The notes under the pieces were generated by a model. It saw only the letters and a program-made list of their open reading frames with translations, had not been told where the DNA came from and made no database searches. From Escherichia phage BF15: a DNA stretch of 64,000 nt. Of the stretch, positions 23,241 through 63,087 are shown piece after piece. The stretch lies in sequence record MW822007.1; one strand, 5' to 3'. The stretch's first letter is position 1. The number at the start of each line of letters is the position of its first letter. Both the position numbers and the translations under genes were made by a program.

Positions 23241-23543
23241 TTATTTACCTTTAATTACTTTAGCTGCTTCGATAGCCGCTTGCTGAAGGTCATCCATAGA
23301 CATACCGAATTTAGAAGCAAAGTTATCAATTTTCTTTTCGACAGCATTCAAAGGCTTGGCCTGTTTACCTTCATTAGCGCCAGGAAGAGCGAGAATACGC
23401 TCTTTGTCAATATAAAGGCTTACAAGTTTCTTACGGTCTTTATCGGACAAATCATGAAATGAATGGGCCTTTTTATTTATAGCGGCTTCTAATTTACCTG
23501 CACTCACTCGCGCTTCAGTAATAAATTCTTGATATGTTTTCAT
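23241..23543 (-). CDS. ipII: internal protein (IPII-like) with capsid targeting sequence
   Basis: MKTYQEFITE-A leader with gp21-type cleavage motif; 100 aa. Confidence 0.7.
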   Translation of the reverse strand: MKTYQEFITEARVSAGKLEAAINKKAHSFHDLSDKDRKKLVSLYIDKERILALPGANEGKQAKPLNAVEKKIDNFASKFGMSMDDLQQAAIEAAKVIKGK

Positions 23544-23584
23544 ATGTTTCCTTTAAATGTAAATAGGTCTGAGTATTATCTTTA

Positions 23585-24163
23585 TTAGGAATTACGGGCT
23601 GCATTAGCAACGGCGTAAGCGTACTGGACATTAGCGTCTTTAAACGTACCTTTAGAGGTATCTATTTCTGCCTTAAAGCCGCCTTTAGCCATAACATCGG
23701 CAAATTCTTTACGGAAAGCCATTGCATCAAGACCTTTCCATGATGATTTATGCTTGGCAAATTCAAGACCAGCGTAGTTGACAGCCTTAGCTAATTTATT
23801 ATCAATAACCCATTTACCGGCTTTAGGCACAAACTTCGGGCCTTTTTGTTTAGAGAACAGTTTTAAATTCCAGCGACGAAGGTCACTGTCGGCTTTAACA
23901 AAAGCTGCGTCTAAGTTACTAGCAACAACATCTTCAATATGAGCAAATTTAAGTCCGTCAACTTCAATATTTAGATCGTTACGCCAGCGAAGTCCTTCCC
24001 AAGCGAAGGCTTTAAAGTCGGAAGCCTTTGTAGCTAAGTACCGTTCAATAGGAGCTGTTTTAGGGTCAAAGCCGTTTCCCGATCGGTAGGTCCACTCATC
24101 TTTATTAATGCCTTTGGCCTTTACTATAGAAGCTTCGGCAATAAATTCTTGATAGGTTTTCAT
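23585..24163 (-). CDS. ipIII: internal protein (IPIII-like) with capsid targeting sequence
   Basis: MKTYQEFIAE-A leader; 192 aa. Confidence 0.7.
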   Translation of the reverse strand: MKTYQEFIAEASIVKAKGINKDEWTYRSGNGFDPKTAPIERYLATKASDFKAFAWEGLRWRNDLNIEVDGLKFAHIEDVVASNLDAAFVKADSDLRRWNLKLFSKQKGPKFVPKAGKWVIDNKLAKAVNYAGLEFAKHKSSWKGLDAMAFRKEFADVMAKGGFKAEIDTSKGTFKDANVQYAYAVANAARNS

Positions 24164-24191
24164 GTGTTTCCTTGTTTGTTTTGATAGAGTA

Positions 24192-24221
24192 ATTATACCA
24201 TATTAATACTTAAGCGTAAAC
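24192..24221 (-). promoter_or_regulatory. early promoter (GTTTAC, 15 nt, TGGTATAAT)
   Basis: consensus match. Confidence 0.5.
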
Positions 24222-24224
24222 CGT

Positions 24225-24485
24225 TTAAGCTTTACCGCCAGAAATAATTCCGAAGTTGTTAAAATCATATCCAATATCGTCAACATCTACTTTAGGACTT
24301 GCTACAACATAAGCAATTTCACTACGTTTTGCACAGGTGTTGATTTCTTTACCATCGCCACCTAAGAAAGAATACCCATTACGTTTTAATGAGCCAAAGT
24401 CTTCCGCATCACCAATGAAAGCTTTAACTTTAAATTTAGAACCTTTGGCATCTGCTTCAACGATAAATTCTTGATACATTTTCAT
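24225..24485 (-). CDS. novel internal-protein-like gene with capsid targeting sequence
   Basis: MKMYQEFIVE-A leader; 86 aa, Gly-rich body. Confidence 0.6.
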   Translation of the reverse strand: MKMYQEFIVEADAKGSKFKVKAFIGDAEDFGSLKRNGYSFLGGDGKEINTCAKRSEIAYVVASPKVDVDDIGYDFNNFGIISGGKA

Positions 24486-24491
24486 TTTTCC

Positions 24492-24595
24492 TTAGTAAAT
24501 TGATTTACCAAAGTATTTGTACCAAGTCGGACGTTGATCAATTTTTTCATCTAAGCGTGCTTGATTTATCGCAATGGACGCTTCGGACGGGTCAT
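24492..24595 (-). pseudogene. denV: denV remnant: start codon and last ~33 codons joined out of frame
   Basis: GGAGG-N7-ATGACCCGT (MTR) then stop after 9 codons; in the +1 frame ...[30 protein letters not shown] matches the T4 endonuclease V C-terminus as recalled. Confidence 0.6.
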
Positions 24596-24621
24596 AATTT
24601 CCTCCAAGTAGTTGATGAATG

Positions 24622-24652
24622 TATAGTATCAAAACCCTTGGAGGAAGTAAAC
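24622..24652 (-). promoter_or_regulatory. early promoter (GTTTAC, 15 nt, TGATACTAT) of the denV remnant
   Basis: lies inside the N-terminal part of track ORF 24492-24689. Confidence 0.45.
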
Positions 24653-24654
24653 AA

Positions 24655-25895
<1,241 letters not shown>

Positions 25896-29591: not shown

Positions 29592-29668
<77 letters not shown>

Positions 29669-29671
29669 TAA

Positions 29672-30337
29672 TTAAAATTTCATTTTTCGACCTTTAAACC
29701 ATCCTTCTGGAATTGGATCAGTTTTCTTAATACGTTTAGAAACTTTTTCATCTAATGAATGAATCCACATCATACCAAATTGGGAATTCTTTTCACCTTG
29801 TTGGTGTTTATTTCTGGCGTGAGATTCTTTCATTTTATTAATAGTTTCAGGAGTATGAGTCTTACCCAAGAAAGATTTAGTATTTAAAAATTTCTCTCTA
29901 TACTTAGGATTATCCCAAAGCTGTTTAAACCTTTCTGAACCCATTTTACGATATTTTTCTTTAAGGTCTGGGTCGTTCTCAAATCTGGTTTTAAAAGCGG
30001 CAGCTCCTTTTAAGGAAGCTTCTTTCTTTTTATCCAAATATTCTTTAGTGTTTAAATGGTCCCAACCACCTTCACCACCTAATTTCAAATTATAAACATC
30101 AGGGCGCTTTAAAAACTCTTCAGTCACAATATTCTTTTCTGACTCAAACATAGAGGTTTTATCGTCAAAGAACTCTAATATTTCTTTAGAAAAATTTTCT
30201 ATACCATACTTATCTTGGGCTCTTTTTAATAATTTACCAGAACCCATATATCCATCATCTAAATTTTCGGTAGAATGAGCGCCTATATAGATTTTATTAT
30301 TAATTTTATTTGTTATTTTATAAATGTAATGGAACAT
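29672..30337 (-). CDS. segB: GIY-YIG homing endonuclease (SegB-like) inside the tRNA cluster
   Basis: YIYKITNKINNKIYIGAHS GIY-YIG motif; GGEGG; same position as T4 segB. Confidence 0.75.
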   Translation of the reverse strand: MFHYIYKITNKINNKIYIGAHSTENLDDGYMGSGKLLKRAQDKYGIENFSKEILEFFDDKTSMFESEKNIVTEEFLKRPDVYNLKLGGEGGWDHLNTKEYLDKKKEASLKGAAAFKTRFENDPDLKEKYRKMGSERFKQLWDNPKYREKFLNTKSFLGKTHTPETINKMKESHARNKHQQGEKNSQFGMMWIHSLDEKVSKRIKKTDPIPEGWFKGRKMKF

Positions 30338-30378
30338 AAATATCTCCTATTTCTAAGAGTATTTATGTTCTCAAAATA

Positions 30379-30450
30379 TGGCCCTGGGTGGAATTGAACC
30401 ACCATCTGGCGATTATGAGTCGCTTGCTTGAACCTTCCAGCTACAGGGCC
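30379..30450 (-). tRNA. trnI: tRNA-Ile (anticodon CAT, lysidine-type)
   Basis: acceptor GGCCCTG/CAGGGCC; anticodon loop CTCATAA; T-arm GGTGGTTCAATTCCACC. Confidence 0.7.
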
Positions 30451-30456
30451 TTGATA

Positions 30457-30529
30457 TGCTGATTGACGGAATCGAACCGCCGACGTCCTCATTACAAGTG
30501 AGTTGCTCTACCTACTGAGCTAAATCAGC
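30457..30529 (-). tRNA. trnT: tRNA-Thr (anticodon TGT)
   Basis: GCTGATTTAGCTCAGTAGG...; anticodon loop CTTGTAA; GGTTCGATTCC. Confidence 0.8.
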
Positions 30530-30536
30530 GAAATTA

Positions 30537-30623
30537 CGGAGGCGATAGGATTTGAACCTATGAGTCGCCGGAGCGACTGCCGGTTTTCAAGACCGGTGCA
30601 TTAAACCACTCTGCCACGCCTCC
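30537..30623 (-). tRNA. trnS: tRNA-Ser (anticodon TGA), long variable arm
   Basis: GGAGGCGTGGCAGAGTGG...; anticodon loop CTTGAAA; 87 nt. Confidence 0.8.
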
Positions 30624-30625
30624 AG

Positions 30626-30699
30626 TCTCCATACAAGGATTTGAACCTTGGACCTCCTGATCCCAAATCAGGCGCTCTACCAAACTGAGCTACACGGAG
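30626..30699 (-). tRNA. trnP: tRNA-Pro (anticodon TGG)
   Basis: TAGCTCAGTTTGGTAGAGC D-arm; anticodon loop TTTGGGA; GGTTCAAATCC. Confidence 0.8.
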
Positions 30700-30711
30700 T
30701 AAATTAAATTT

Positions 30712-30783
<72 letters not shown>

Positions 30784-30789
30784 AAACTT

Positions 30790-30876
30790 TGGTACGAGAA
30801 GTGGGACTCGAACCCACAAGGAAATCATTCCGCAGCATTTTAAGTGCTGTGCCTTTACCAATTTGACCATTCTCGC
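30790..30876 (-). tRNA. trnL: tRNA-Leu (anticodon TAA), CCA encoded
   Basis: GCGAGAATGGTCAAATTGGTAAAGG...; anticodon loop CTTAAAA; GGTTCGAGTCC; 87 nt. Confidence 0.8.
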
Positions 30877-30877
30877 G

Positions 30878-30950
30878 CTGGGAATAAAGGACTCGAACCT
30901 TTGCATCCTGGAATCAAAATCCAGTGCCTTACCAACTTGGCTAATTCCCA
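30878..30950 (-). tRNA. trnQ: tRNA-Gln (anticodon TTG)
   Basis: TGGGAATTAGCCAAGTTGG...; anticodon loop TTTTGAT; 1-nt spacer to tRNA-Leu (dimeric precursor). Confidence 0.8.
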
Positions 30951-31722: not shown

Positions 31723-31908
31723 CTATTCACCTTTAGAAATTTTATCCATAACGATAGCAATTAAACCAATTAAAAATGCTACTACAAGTGAAAAAACATT
31801 TTCTGCTGTAGTCAATAATCCGCATATAAATCCAACAAACATTGAAAAACTAAAAGCGGAAGCAGAAATTGCAATAGCAACATTTCGAATTAATTCACAA
31901 CGTTTCAT
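31723..31908 (-). CDS. small membrane protein
   Basis: 61 aa, two hydrophobic helices. Confidence 0.45.
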   Translation of the reverse strand: MKRCELIRNVAIAISASAFSFSMFVGFICGLLTTAENVFSLVVAFLIGLIAIVMDKISKGE

Positions 31909-31937
31909 TTTATTCTCCTCAGTAGTTGATAGGGTAA

Positions 31938-31966
31938 TAGTATCACTACCCTATCTAAAAGTAAAC
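31938..31966 (-). promoter_or_regulatory. early promoter (GTTTAC, 14 nt, TGATACTAT)
   Basis: consensus match. Confidence 0.45.
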
Positions 31967-31978
31967 TGTTTTTATAAA

Positions 31979-32287
31979 CTATTTTATTCCGCGTGATGCA
32001 ATTGTATTCTGTCGTTTAGCACCAGTTTGTTTAAAGTCATGATTGTCGATTTGATCGGTACGAGCAACTCCGAATGATGATTTAATCTTAGCTTTAGATC
32101 CTTTAGTTATAGAAATAAACATCTCGGAAGACCCTTTCTTAAAGTCCGATGCGGATACTTCAACGCCGTTCTTAGCAAGTGACCTCAGAATTGCCTCCGC
32201 GTACTCATCATCAAGACTCGCTTGAGTATTAATAACGAATGTCTTTGGTGCAGCCGCTTCATTGATAAATTCTTTGAAAGTTTTCAT
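31979..32287 (-). CDS. internal-protein-like gene (ipI locus) with capsid targeting sequence
   Basis: MKTFKEFINE-A leader; 102 aa basic body. Confidence 0.6.
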   Translation of the reverse strand: MKTFKEFINEAAAPKTFVINTQASLDDEYAEAILRSLAKNGVEVSASDFKKGSSEMFISITKGSKAKIKSSFGVARTDQIDNHDFKQTGAKRQNTIASRGIK

Positions 32288-32347
32288 TTTATTTTCCTAA
32301 TTAATTTTGATGAGATAATAGTACAACAACCCTATTTAAAAGTAAAC

Positions 32348-32620
32348 TCATTTTAAATAAATTGCGTATTTTTTATAACCCGCTGACTCATGACGAAGAC
32401 CCTTATCATTAGCAAAACGCTCAATGTTGTTAATTTGATTCTGGTCAAGTTCAGAGATGTCAAACACGAAAAAGTTACGTTTGTTACCAACTGTTACATA
32501 GTCAGTTAAATCAATATCATATAGGTAATTGATGTCAGCAATCAAAGTCTTGACAGCTTTGCTAATTTTTACTTTTTCGTTAAAAGCAGCTTCATTGATA
32601 AATTCTTTAAATGTTTTCAT
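32348..32620 (-). CDS. internal-protein-like gene (ipI locus) with capsid targeting sequence
   Basis: ATG with GGAG SD gives the MKTFKEFINE-A leader; the track ORF starts at an upstream TTG. Confidence 0.6.
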   Translation of the reverse strand: MKTFKEFINEAAFNEKVKISKAVKTLIADINYLYDIDLTDYVTVGNKRNFFVFDISELDQNQINNIERFANDKGLRHESAGYKKYAIYLK

Positions 32621-32656
32621 TTTATTCTCCAATCACTCATTTGTTTTGATAGGGTA

Positions 32657-32686
32657 ATAGTATCATAACTAAAACCCCATGTAAAC
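32657..32686 (-). promoter_or_regulatory. early promoter (GTTTAC, 15 nt, TGATACTAT)
   Basis: consensus match. Confidence 0.45.
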
Positions 32687-32698
32687 AGCTTTGTGAAA

Positions 32699-33395
<697 letters not shown>

Positions 33396-33396
<1 letters not shown>

Positions 33397-34121
33397 TATA
33401 GTACCTTTAGTGTATTTTTAATTTTAGAAAAAAGTTCTTCAAGAGAACCATCGTTTGTAATTACTAAATCACCATCACGAATTGGCAATCCAGCTTCTGT
33501 AATATGTGTATCATTGGATTTTTGACCAGGACGAACTACATGAATTACTGTAGCACCCATCGCCCTAGCCGCATCCATTTCATGATCTTGACGAGTATCA
33601 GGAACGATATAATAATCATAACCTGAGTTAAATTTATCAAGATAATCTAAAGCAAATAATTTTACCCAATACATGCGGTCGAAGTTATTAACAATCAAAT
33701 CCGTACCTAGGGCTTGCATCAGACGACGGACTGACCATTGGTCTTCAATATTATTTATAACGTCAATAATCTTGTTACATGCTACGGAATCAACTGATTC
33801 TTGTCCTTCGTCCTCAAAAACACACACACCCTTAATTGGGCTTTTACCGTTAAGATAGCAAAATGCTTGTTCCATAATCGTGATTACTTCTGATTTAGTC
33901 AGATTTAAATTAGTCTCACGATCATAGTCAATTCCTTCAAACTCTTTGCGAGTTAAGCAAGGATAGTCAGTGTTTGCTGCAAATACACCCCATGCATAAG
34001 CCAATGCATCTTTAATAGGACCAGCAAGTTGATATTTAACTGCAGAATAATTATTCATGATAAAATCTGCAGTAGTATCTTTTCCACTACGCTTTACACC
34101 ACTTAAAAAGATTAGTTTCAT
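33396..34121 (-). CDS. 1: deoxynucleoside monophosphate kinase
   Basis: 241 aa; P-loop GVKRSGKDT. Confidence 0.85.
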
Positions 34122-61184: not shown

Positions 61185-61609
61185 TGCTTCTGATCCCTGA
61201 AACTCATGAATTAGTTCTCGAGAATGTCGAAGCACTTATTCCTGAAGCACAGGGTCGCTTTGACGAATTGTCTTCTGCTTTAAATAAAGACGATATAAAT
61301 ACAATTGTCGAGAATATGCTTGATGATGAAACCGATTTAGCAGTTGCATTAGCTTCTATTAATGAAAATATGCCGTTAAATGAATTCATTGTTAAGCATG
61401 TTTCAGCTCGTGGTGAAATTACACGTACTAAAGACCGCAAAACACGCGAACGTAATGCATTTCAAACCACTGGGCTGTCTAAAGCAAAACGTAGACAAAT
61501 TGCTCGCAAAGCTACCAAAACGAAGATTGCCAATCCAGCAGGTCAATCTCGTGCTCAGCGTAAGCGTAAAAAAGCTCTTAAACGCCGTAAAGCATTAGGA
61601 TTAAGCTAA
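61184..61609 (+). CDS. 68: prohead core protein gp68
   Basis: 141 aa; basic C-terminus. Confidence 0.8.
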
Positions 61610-62247
61610 TGAATGAACCCCAATTACTAATTGAAACTTGGGGTCAACCTGGCGAAATTATTGATGGTGTGCCAATGCTTGAATCCCACGATGGAAAAGA
61701 CTTAGGTTTAAAACCTGGTTTATACATCGAAGGAATATTCATGCAAGCAGAAGTCGTCAATAGAAATAAACGTCTTTATCCAAAACGCATATTAGAAAAA
61801 GCGGTAAAAGACTATATTAATGAGCAAGTTTTAACTAAACAAGCTCTCGGAGAATTAAATCATCCTCCACGCGCTAATGTTGACCCGATGCAAGCCGCTA
61901 TCATTATAGAAGATATGTGGTGGAAAGGAAATGACGTATACGGACGAGCTCGTGTTATTGAAGGTGACCATGGTCCTGGAGATAAATTAGCAGCTAATAT
62001 TCGTGCCGGATGGATTCCAGGAGTTTCTTCTCGTGGATTAGGTTCATTGACTGACACAAATAAAGGTTATCGTATCGTAAACGAAGGATTCAAATTAACT
62101 GTAGGTGTTGATGCAGTATGGGGTCCAAGTGCTCCAGATGCATGGGTAACTCCTAAGGAAATTACCGAATCACAGACGGCGGAAGCCGATACAAGTGCCG
62201 ATGACGCCTATATGGCTCTCGCAGAGGCCATGAAAAAAGCGTTATAA
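61609..62247 (+). CDS. 21: prohead protease gp21
   Basis: 212 aa. Confidence 0.9.
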   Translation: MNEPQLLIETWGQPGEIIDGVPMLESHDGKDLGLKPGLYIEGIFMQAEVVNRNKRLYPKRILEKAVKDYINEQVLTKQALGELNHPPRANVDPMQAAIIIEDMWWKGNDVYGRARVIEGDHGPGDKLAANIRAGWIPGVSSRGLGSLTDTNKGYRIVNEGFKLTVGVDAVWGPSAPDAWVTPKEITESQTAEADTSADDAYMALAEAMKKAL

Positions 62248-62277: not shown

Positions 62278-63087
62278 ATGCTTAAAGAACAACTGATTGC
62301 TGAAGCGCAAAAAATTGATGCTTCCGTTGCTCTTGATAGTATTTTCGAATCAGTTAATATTTCTCCGGAAGCAAAAGAAACTTTCGGCACTGTATTCGAA
62401 GCTACCGTCAAGCAGCACGCCGTTAAATTAGCTGAATCTCATATCGCTAAAATTGCTGAAAAAGCAGAAGAAGAAGTAGAAAAAAATAAAGAAGAAGCCG
62501 AAGAAAAAGCTGAGAAGAAAATCGCTGAGCAAGCTTCTAAATTCATCGACCATCTTGCGAAAGAATGGCTCGCTGAAAATAAATTAGCAGTTGATAAAGG
62601 CATCAAAGCCGAACTGTTTGAATCCATGCTTGGTGGATTAAAAGAGCTCTTTGTTGAACACAACGTTGTTGTTCCAGAAGAATCAGTTGATGTTGTGGCT
62701 GAAATGGAAGAAGAGCTGCAAGAACATAAAGAAGAATCAGCTCGTCTGTTCGAAGAACTCAATATGCGCGACGCATATATTAATTATGTGCAGCGTGAAG
62801 TGGCATTGAGCGAAAGTACTAAAGATCTGACTGAGTCTCAAAAAGAAAAAGTCTCTGCTCTGGTCGAAGGTATGGATTATTCAGATGAATTCTCAAATAA
62901 ATTGAGTGCCATCGTAGAAATGGTGAAGAAGTCTAATAAAGATGAAAGCACTATTACTGAGGGTATAAATACTCCTGATACTGAAGCAGCCGGACTGAAT
63001 TTCGTCACTGAAGCTGTAGAAGATAAAGCTGCACCTGGTGCAGAAGATATTGTAAGTGTATATGCGAAAGTCGCATCTCGTTTCTAA
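62278..63087 (+). CDS. 22: prohead core scaffold protein gp22
   Basis: 269 aa; highly charged helical. Confidence 0.9.
   Translation: MLKEQLIAEAQKIDASVALDSIFESVNISPEAKETFGTVFEATVKQHAVKLAESHIAKIAEKAEEEVEKNKEEAEEKAEKKIAEQASKFIDHLAKEWLAENKLAVDKGIKAELFESMLGGLKELFVEHNVVVPEESVDVVAEMEEELQEHKEESARLFEELNMRDAYINYVQREVALSESTKDLTESQKEKVSALVEGMDYSDEFSNKLSAIVEMVKKSNKDESTITEGINTPDTEAAGLNFVTEAVEDKAAPGAEDIVSVYAKVASRF

Follow-up and report, generated by a model that had tools for sequence, protein, structure and literature searches.

Two genes assigned to ip9 and ip7, joining one predicted capsid targeting sequence to unrelated cargos, at the ipI locus of Escherichia phage BF15

Two small genes, which we assign to ip9 and ip7, lie on the reverse strand between gene 57B and the trna.4 homologue of Escherichia phage BF15 (sequence record MW822007.1). 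Positions are those of the window, meaning the whole stretch of DNA analysed (64,000 nucleotides). The ip9 open reading frame (32348..32620, reverse strand; phrog_7673) encodes a 90-aa precursor read as a 10-residue capsid targeting sequence and an 80-residue cargo, and ip7 (31979..32287, reverse strand; phrog_2667) encodes a 102-aa precursor read as a 10-residue targeting sequence and a 92-residue basic cargo. Both leaders are spelled MKTFKEFINE (32591..32620 for Ip9 and 32258..32287 for Ip7, reverse strand), with cleavage by gp21 predicted in each after Glu10 and before Ala11.

The conserved upstream border of the locus is gene 57B (32699..33154, reverse strand; PF23474, E 7.8e-60), the Acb1 anti-CBASS phosphodiesterase, and the conserved downstream border is the trna.4 homologue (31723..31908, reverse strand; phrog_1692, E 6e-35). 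Since 57B adjoins the ip genes, known counter-defence genes lie side by side here. In many GenBank records 57B/Acb1, an anti-CBASS/anti-Pycsar phosphodiesterase, is still labelled "RNA ligase". Gene order is as in T4 (tRNA cluster, trna.2, trna.3, trna.4, ip genes, 57B, 57A, 1, 3), and the trna.4 and 57B flanks are syntenic with those of T4, RB32, T2 and HMD-9. The slot had been called the ipI locus in an earlier note on this DNA, correctly so, as T4 holds a single gene, ipI, between trna.4 and 57B. Shigella phage TB004, Escherichia phage HMD-9 and further phages share 97-98% identity with a 1.5-kb stretch around ip9 and ip7, and phages W143 and Lv5cm ~96% with a 20-kb stretch; judged by its sequence, the source phage is T4-like, of the genus Tequatrovirus. 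The tRNA cluster comprises eight genes (29592-30950, reverse strand: Arg, Met, Thr, Ser, Pro, Gly, Leu and Gln), with a gap of ~710 nt (29669-30378) between tRNA-Arg and tRNA-Met, where T4 has the segB homing endonuclease and the HMD-9 cluster has additional Asn and Tyr tRNAs.

The start of ip9 was placed at the ATG at 32620, in agreement with the 273-nt Ip9 genes annotated in relatives; the TTG at 32632, given as the start in the list of open reading frames, lies inside the Shine-Dalgarno/ribosome-binding region (TTGGAGAATAAAATG). Ip9 and Ip7 both open with MKTFKEFINEAA, identical in 12 of 12 residues by BLASTP, with no similarity further on. At the DNA level codons 1-10 are identical at 28 of 30 positions and only background identity is found past codon 12; a repeat search gave a 46-nt repeat at 91%. 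The coordinates and the shared MKTFKEFINEA start given in the earlier note are thus exact, and the bodies are unrelated, as it had said, BLASTP similarity ending with the leader. Its description of one body as basic and Ser/Thr-rich and of the other as Asp/Tyr-rich roughly holds for the mature forms (Ip7: pI 9.7, Ser+Thr 17/92; Ip9: pI 8.2, 6 Tyr, Asp 8.8%, Asn 10%). Its remark that the leader has F for Y is right relative to IPII and IPIII (MKTYQEF...) but wrong relative to T4 IPI, which itself starts MKTFKEF.

Profile searches assigned the 102-aa protein to phrog_2667 (E 1e-41) and the 90-aa protein to phrog_7673 (E 1e-54), both annotated "internal head protein". The Ip7 body is 95.6% identical to T2 Ip7 and 98.9% identical to the "Ip7 protein" of EC.W14-2; the Ip9 body is 98.7% identical to RB32 Ip9 and 100% identical to its counterpart in phage 310Ecol104PP, and Ip9 is 93% identical to UniRef Q38376 ("Ip9, phage RB15"). 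Each protein is similar over its full length to the named Ip7 or Ip9 orthologous group, and searches with the bodies alone (tblastn) found Ip7 in 283 phage records and Ip9 in 193. By this similarity the two genes are ip9 and ip7, catalogued internal head proteins of which neither is new.

A leader-pattern scan of the window recovered six genes, against zero in 50 shuffles, so the shared leader is a real observation and not a product of chance. That result, with the 12 of 12 identical residues, the strong PHROG matches and the conservation in 283 and 193 phage records, effectively refutes a reading in which the leader is a coincidence or an annotation artefact and the open reading frames are not real packaged proteins. 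Among Ip7 and Ip9 orthologues the spelling of the leader varies freely (MKTFKEFINE, MKTYQEFINE, MKSYQEFINE, MKTYKEFIAE and MKMYQEFITE in the orthologue alignments). Despite this freedom the neighbouring ip9 and ip7 of BF15 carry an identical leader, a pattern consistent with local gene conversion or with recent recombination within the cassette.

In the 10-residue capsid targeting sequence of IPIII, targeting depends mainly on residues 4 and 7; the processing determinants are residues 8 and 10, and gp21 cuts after Glu in the motif L/I-x-E (PMC9026906). The Ip7 and Ip9 leaders have F4, F7, I8 and E10, followed by Ala11, and so keep all of the mapped targeting and processing determinants: both have an aromatic residue at position 4 and Phe at position 7, and both have the gp21 motif I8-N9-E10 before Ala11, where cleavage is predicted from the sequence. 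The two genes lie in the variable internal-protein locus (57B to trna.4), and cognate gp21 and gp22 are encoded in the same genome. Gene 21 (61609..62247, forward strand; PF03420 Peptidase_S77, E 1.5e-111), the prohead core serine protease, is the enzyme expected to remove the leaders in trans; gene 22 (62278..63087, forward strand; PF25623 T4_CASP, E 1e-89), the scaffolding core protein, would recruit leader-bearing proteins, also in trans. Portal gp20 and gp67 are encoded in the window as well. Ip7 and Ip9 thus show every defining feature, at the level of sequence, of T4-type internal proteins bearing a capsid targeting sequence. A literature search found no paper with virion-proteomics or injection results for Ip7 or Ip9.

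The other four leader-bearing genes form a second internal-protein locus (23241..24936, reverse strand), recognized by the pattern scan and by matches to phrog_7857, phrog_5341, phrog_3499 and phrog_2667/35655. It holds ipII (23241-23543), ipIII (23585-24163), an 86-aa gene whose product starts MKMYQEFIVEA (24225-24485) and a 93-aa leader-bearing gene (24655-24936; phrog_3499, "internal head protein"), all on the reverse strand. BF15 accordingly has six internal-protein genes to the three of T4. The 86-aa protein, a possible paralogue of Ip7, matches the Ip7 family (phrog_2667, E 2e-19), with a pairwise BLASTP E value against Ip7 of only 0.01 and an hhalign probability of 63% for a match lying partly within the leader.

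A cassette of ~70 nt, TTTAC(A/T)-N17-TACTAT followed by GGAG/GGAA-AATAAA-ATG, stands ahead of ip9, ip7 and trna.4 (three-copy alignment). The copy upstream of ip9 (32621..32690, reverse strand) reads TTTACA-N17-TACTAT with TG, has GGAG at 32627-32630, and gave a promoter-scan match at 32685-32657, again with the TG, and a modest stem-loop of -6.3 kcal/mol (z -1.8). The copy upstream of ip7 (32288..32347, reverse strand) directly follows the ip9 stop codon; its repeat identity is 70%, its stem-loop is degraded, and stem-loop folding found no stable fold in it. The third copy, upstream of trna.4 (31909..31978, reverse strand), marks the downstream boundary of the ip7 module; it served as the reference copy of the repeat and has a likewise modest 9-bp stem (GATAGGGTA/TACCCTATC, z -2.4). 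All three fit TTTACW-N17-TAYWAT with a Shine-Dalgarno sequence and a start codon, repeated between small genes. Because the cassette repeat continues into the leader codons, entire cargo modules can be exchanged by homologous recombination, and the repeated early-promoter cassette before each ip gene is a known shuffling substrate. No late-promoter motif was found directly upstream of ip9 or ip7, the nearest TATAAATA on the same strand lying within gene 1 (33752-33759), so the late synthesis needed for packaging would depend on transcription reading through 57A and 57B.

Variation at the locus is wide. More than 30 internal-protein variants were known by 2007 (Arbiol et al. 2010). RB32 carries Ip5-Ip9-Ip7 here, and its annotation already records a 43 bp direct repeat flanking Ip9 and Ip7; T2 has Ip5-Ip7. 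With the 1.5-kb stretch as query, at least 44 GenBank records match 80% or more of its length in a single alignment. We also fetched 36 IMG/VR loci via their relative of 57B and scanned the region downstream for leader-bearing open reading frames: each locus had 0-3 such genes (two or more in 13 of the 36), and the cargos fell into 13 unrelated clusters. Ip9 and Ip7 follow one another in the same order as in BF15 at two of these loci (L031 and L023) and in reversed order at one (L013). A two-gene ip locus is therefore ordinary, and the Ip9-Ip7 pair a known combination. One protein of Escherichia phage OLB35 annotated "ip7 protein" (P0017, 77 aa) is a chimera with no leader, its N-terminal part resembling Ip7 residues ~29-72 and its C-terminal part approximately the last 35 residues of Ip9; it looks like a deletion or recombination product in a locus of Ip7-Ip9 order.

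We regard it as highly probable that ip9 and ip7 are polymorphic T-even internal-protein modules, packaged, injected, directed against host defence and assembled by recombination. Each ip gene consists of an early-promoter cassette, a Shine-Dalgarno sequence, a near-identical 10-codon targeting sequence and an unrelated cargo, and lies in the hyperplastic ipI locus. By extension from work on T4, the leader would bring the precursor to the prohead and into its gp22 scaffolding core, and the gp21 protease would cut after Glu10 within the motif I-N-E|A. Mature Ip7* (92 aa, ~9.9 kDa) and Ip9* (80 aa, ~9.3 kDa) would then stay with the packaged DNA and be injected together with it, again as in T4. 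Because they would enter with the DNA, they would act before any phage gene expression. As with Ip1, Ip2 and Ip3, each cargo would neutralize a single first-line defence of the host, a GmrSD-type modification-dependent nuclease being the leading, though unproven, candidate target. The two-gene arrangement probably arose through recombination between repeated promoter/leader cassettes, which would swap cargo modules among related phages.

The earlier note had seen in the two cargos a sign of altered or broadened anti-restriction specificity. The idea is not new: that phages inject a diversified set of anti-restriction cargos has been the working hypothesis of the field from 1994-2010 onward, and altered or broadened specificity has already been proposed (Rao & Black 2010, PMC3012670; Silas et al. 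2025, PMC12373910). Ip1, Ip2 and Ip3 are each active against a single GmrSD-type Type IV system, with no cross-protection, and Silas et al. 2025 (PMC12373910) propose GmrSD variants as the targets of every protein of both Ip loci. That Ip7 and Ip9 are GmrSD-family inhibitors which replace IPI, and in so doing alter or broaden anti-restriction specificity, is possible, if short of probable. It draws on the precedent of these three, the only characterized members, each of which inhibits a distinct GmrSD variant without cross-protection, and on a GmrSD diversity that is large and lies mostly beyond the tested panel: 20 clusters were examined and 15 systems synthesized, of which only 8 were active against T-even phages (PMC12373910). 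It is weakened by the outcome of supplying ip4-10 of T4-like phages in trans against that panel, an experiment of the kind the earlier note had proposed, which gave no reproducible inhibition of any tested GmrSD, the Ip7 and Ip9 of that work being equated with ours by Repoila numbering and possibly differing in sequence (PMC12373910); an apparent effect of ip7 on CLS_011 did not repeat (PMC12373910, Supplementary Fig. 9). T2, moreover, is subject to restriction by GmrSD-ECOR17 and GmrSD-ECOR21 (PMC12373910) despite having Ip7, and Ip7 and Ip9 have no sequence similarity to IPI. IPIII works in the cytoplasm without its leader. By analogy, an anti-GmrSD role of Ip7 and Ip9 is plausible, but the published panel lends it no support.

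The Ip9 cargo also occurs outside leader-bearing proteins. When the Ip9 body was searched exhaustively against 1.84 billion representatives, just 8 clusters matched at E <1e-3; the family is small, and Ip9 does not belong to any large superfamily of bacterial or viral proteins. Leaderless homologues of 66-74 aa are found in Kagunavirus and Seuratvirus siphoviruses: in Kagunavirus UTEC10 a 72-aa homologue heads a run of small same-strand genes, divergent to the replication genes, and in Seuratvirus KS_S4 a 74-aa homologue lies among small genes. In a 667-aa protein of Agtrevirus ChubbyThor the Ip9 domain is C-terminal (phrog_3867 and phrog_7673 at E 7e-9), and in an 861-aa Ackermannviridae protein (P0037) it is internal. 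The retrieved homologues lie at L005:2504-2722, L006:2492-2716 and L007:740-2743 (proteins P0032, P0033, P0035 and P0037). The N-terminus of ChubbyThor gp130 (MSKPNFLQFMQE...) looks a little leader-like and was considered as a shared leader of the T4 kind, but rejected, since each genome has it only once, although 264 records conserve it. These homologues illustrate directly the modularity of leader and cargo.

The phages that carry them bear on the target. Seuratvirus and Ackermannviridae are known for hypermodified DNA, so that two of the three other lineages with Ip9-like proteins fit an inhibitor of GmrSD; Kagunavirus, with its leaderless homologues, is to our knowledge a group not known for modified DNA, which speaks against one. 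The distribution hints that the Ip9 target need not be specific to glucosyl-hmC DNA. Tentatively, and with some doubt, one may see in the Ip9 cargo a portable domain for anti-defence, tied neither to glucosyl-hmC phages nor to capsid delivery, whose target would be a widespread enterobacterial defence other than glucosyl-hmC-specific GmrSD; T4-like phages would have captured a pre-existing early anti-defence gene behind the promoter/leader cassette. Another and, for us, rather unlikely explanation is that the injected Ip7 and Ip9 act on an early barrier of the host other than GmrSD, such as another nuclease or glycosylase acting on the entering DNA, or that they have a host-takeover target, as Alt does. 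The negative result of the published GmrSD panel, the presence of the Ip9 cargo in unrelated phage families as an ordinary leaderless early gene, and the example of Alt, a sign that packaged T4 proteins need not be anti-restriction (PMC9026906), would all agree with it, but each of the three precedents points to GmrSD.

Structure prediction and remote-homology searches added little on function. The AF2 model of Ip7 (pLDDT 65 overall) has a predicted ferredoxin-like core at residues 14-72 (pLDDT 70-85), and that of Ip9 is an alpha/beta sandwich (pLDDT 83), as modelled from a relatively shallow alignment. As modelled, both proteins have generic folds only. Scans of Ip7 and Ip9 against Pfam, NCBIfam and PADLOC gave no meaningful match, and a word-indexed protein search with the two returned close orthologues only. 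In a sequence search of solved structures, a DARPin/ankyrin-like likeness of Ip7 was rejected as sub-threshold noise, and nothing was found for Ip9. The Lys/Arg-rich tail of Ip7, ~30 residues (residues 74-102; 31979-32068, reverse strand; ARTDQIDNHDFKQTGAKRQNTIASRGIK), is predicted to be disordered (pLDDT <50), and hardly varies among orthologues whose overall identity is only 66-99%. It may therefore be a conserved linear motif for binding, or a tail that contacts DNA.

The basic character of Ip7 raises the further alternative that the two proteins are mainly structural, as basic DNA-associated filler or charge-neutralizing head proteins that have no particular target in the host. The internal proteins of T4 are basic, present at ~300 copies each and DNA-binding at low salt (PMC9026906), internal-protein lysines contact DNA phosphates (PMC3012670), and mature Ip7 has a pI of 9.7 and the conserved Lys/Arg-rich tail. 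Mature Ip9, however, is only weakly basic (pI 8.2), a head-filling role is impossible for the leaderless siphovirus homologues of Ip9, and unrelated folded cargos swapped between close relatives are a better fit to adaptive, target-specific functions; we judge this alternative improbable. We thus prefer to see Ip7 and Ip9 as packaged and injected cargos directed against host defence. No phage molecule encounters host immunity earlier than the injected internal proteins, and because Ip1, Ip2 and Ip3 each disarm one GmrSD variant, the ip repertoire probably helps to set host range; it is also relevant to the choice or engineering of T4-like therapeutic phages.

Among known systems, T4 IPI is the nearest by position: it occupies the same genomic place as ip9 and ip7, opens MKTFKEFTSTTT..., shares the first seven residues (MKTFKEF) and is likewise a small protein delivered with DNA. 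Alignment to T4 IPI, which the earlier note had proposed as a check, gave BLASTP similarity in the leader only, with body-only E values of 0.9 or higher, and the Ip7 and Ip9 bodies showed no resemblance beyond the leader to IPI, IPII or IPIII. The IPI propeptide has 19 residues and its mature form 76, against a leader of 10 and mature forms of 92 (Ip7) and 80 (Ip9), and IPI belongs to phrog_4363 whereas Ip7 and Ip9 belong to phrog_2667 and phrog_7673. Membership of Ip7 and Ip9 in the IPI family was accordingly rejected, the bodies, propeptide length and PHROG all being different. IPI has an established target, the GmrSD of E. coli CT596, and the fold of IPI* consists of two beta-sheets flanked by N- and C-terminal helices. 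The leaders are closer to those of T4 IPII and IPIII, which have 10 residues and the same determinants (MKTYQEFI[AT]E versus MKTFKEFINE), with cleavage before Ala/Ser. The genes for IPII (an inhibitor of GmrSD-ECOR21) and IPIII (an inhibitor of GmrSD-ECOR17) are also in the BF15 window, but at the other internal-protein locus, and their cargos are unrelated to Ip7 and Ip9.

The cassettes resemble the "promoter-early stem-loop" elements (PeSLs), for which the T4/PST early-promoter consensus is TTTACW-N17-TAYWAT (PMC4122927): in both, a repeated A/T-rich region with promoter, Shine-Dalgarno sequence and start codon flanks swappable small genes, and in BF15 the copies ahead of ip9 and trna.4 have modest stem-loops. 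As stated by Arbiol 2010, Repoila 1994 saw such elements at both internal-protein loci; Arbiol et al. treat the elements of these loci as analogues, not homologues, of RB49-type PeSLs, with weaker AT-rich stems. The BF15 repeat differs from a PeSL in that the stem is degraded in the ip7 copy and the repeat continues into the coding leader. The closest relatives are the Ip7 and Ip9 of RB15, K3, T2 and RB32 (Repoila 1994 numbering; GenBank/UniProt), which are essentially the same proteins at the same 57B-side locus with the same kind of leader; relative to RB32, BF15 has Ip9-Ip7 without the preceding Ip5, and only the content of the locus differs. The BF15 locus is thus no new kind of element but a typical case of a locus that was described in 1994 and is present in dozens of sequenced phages.
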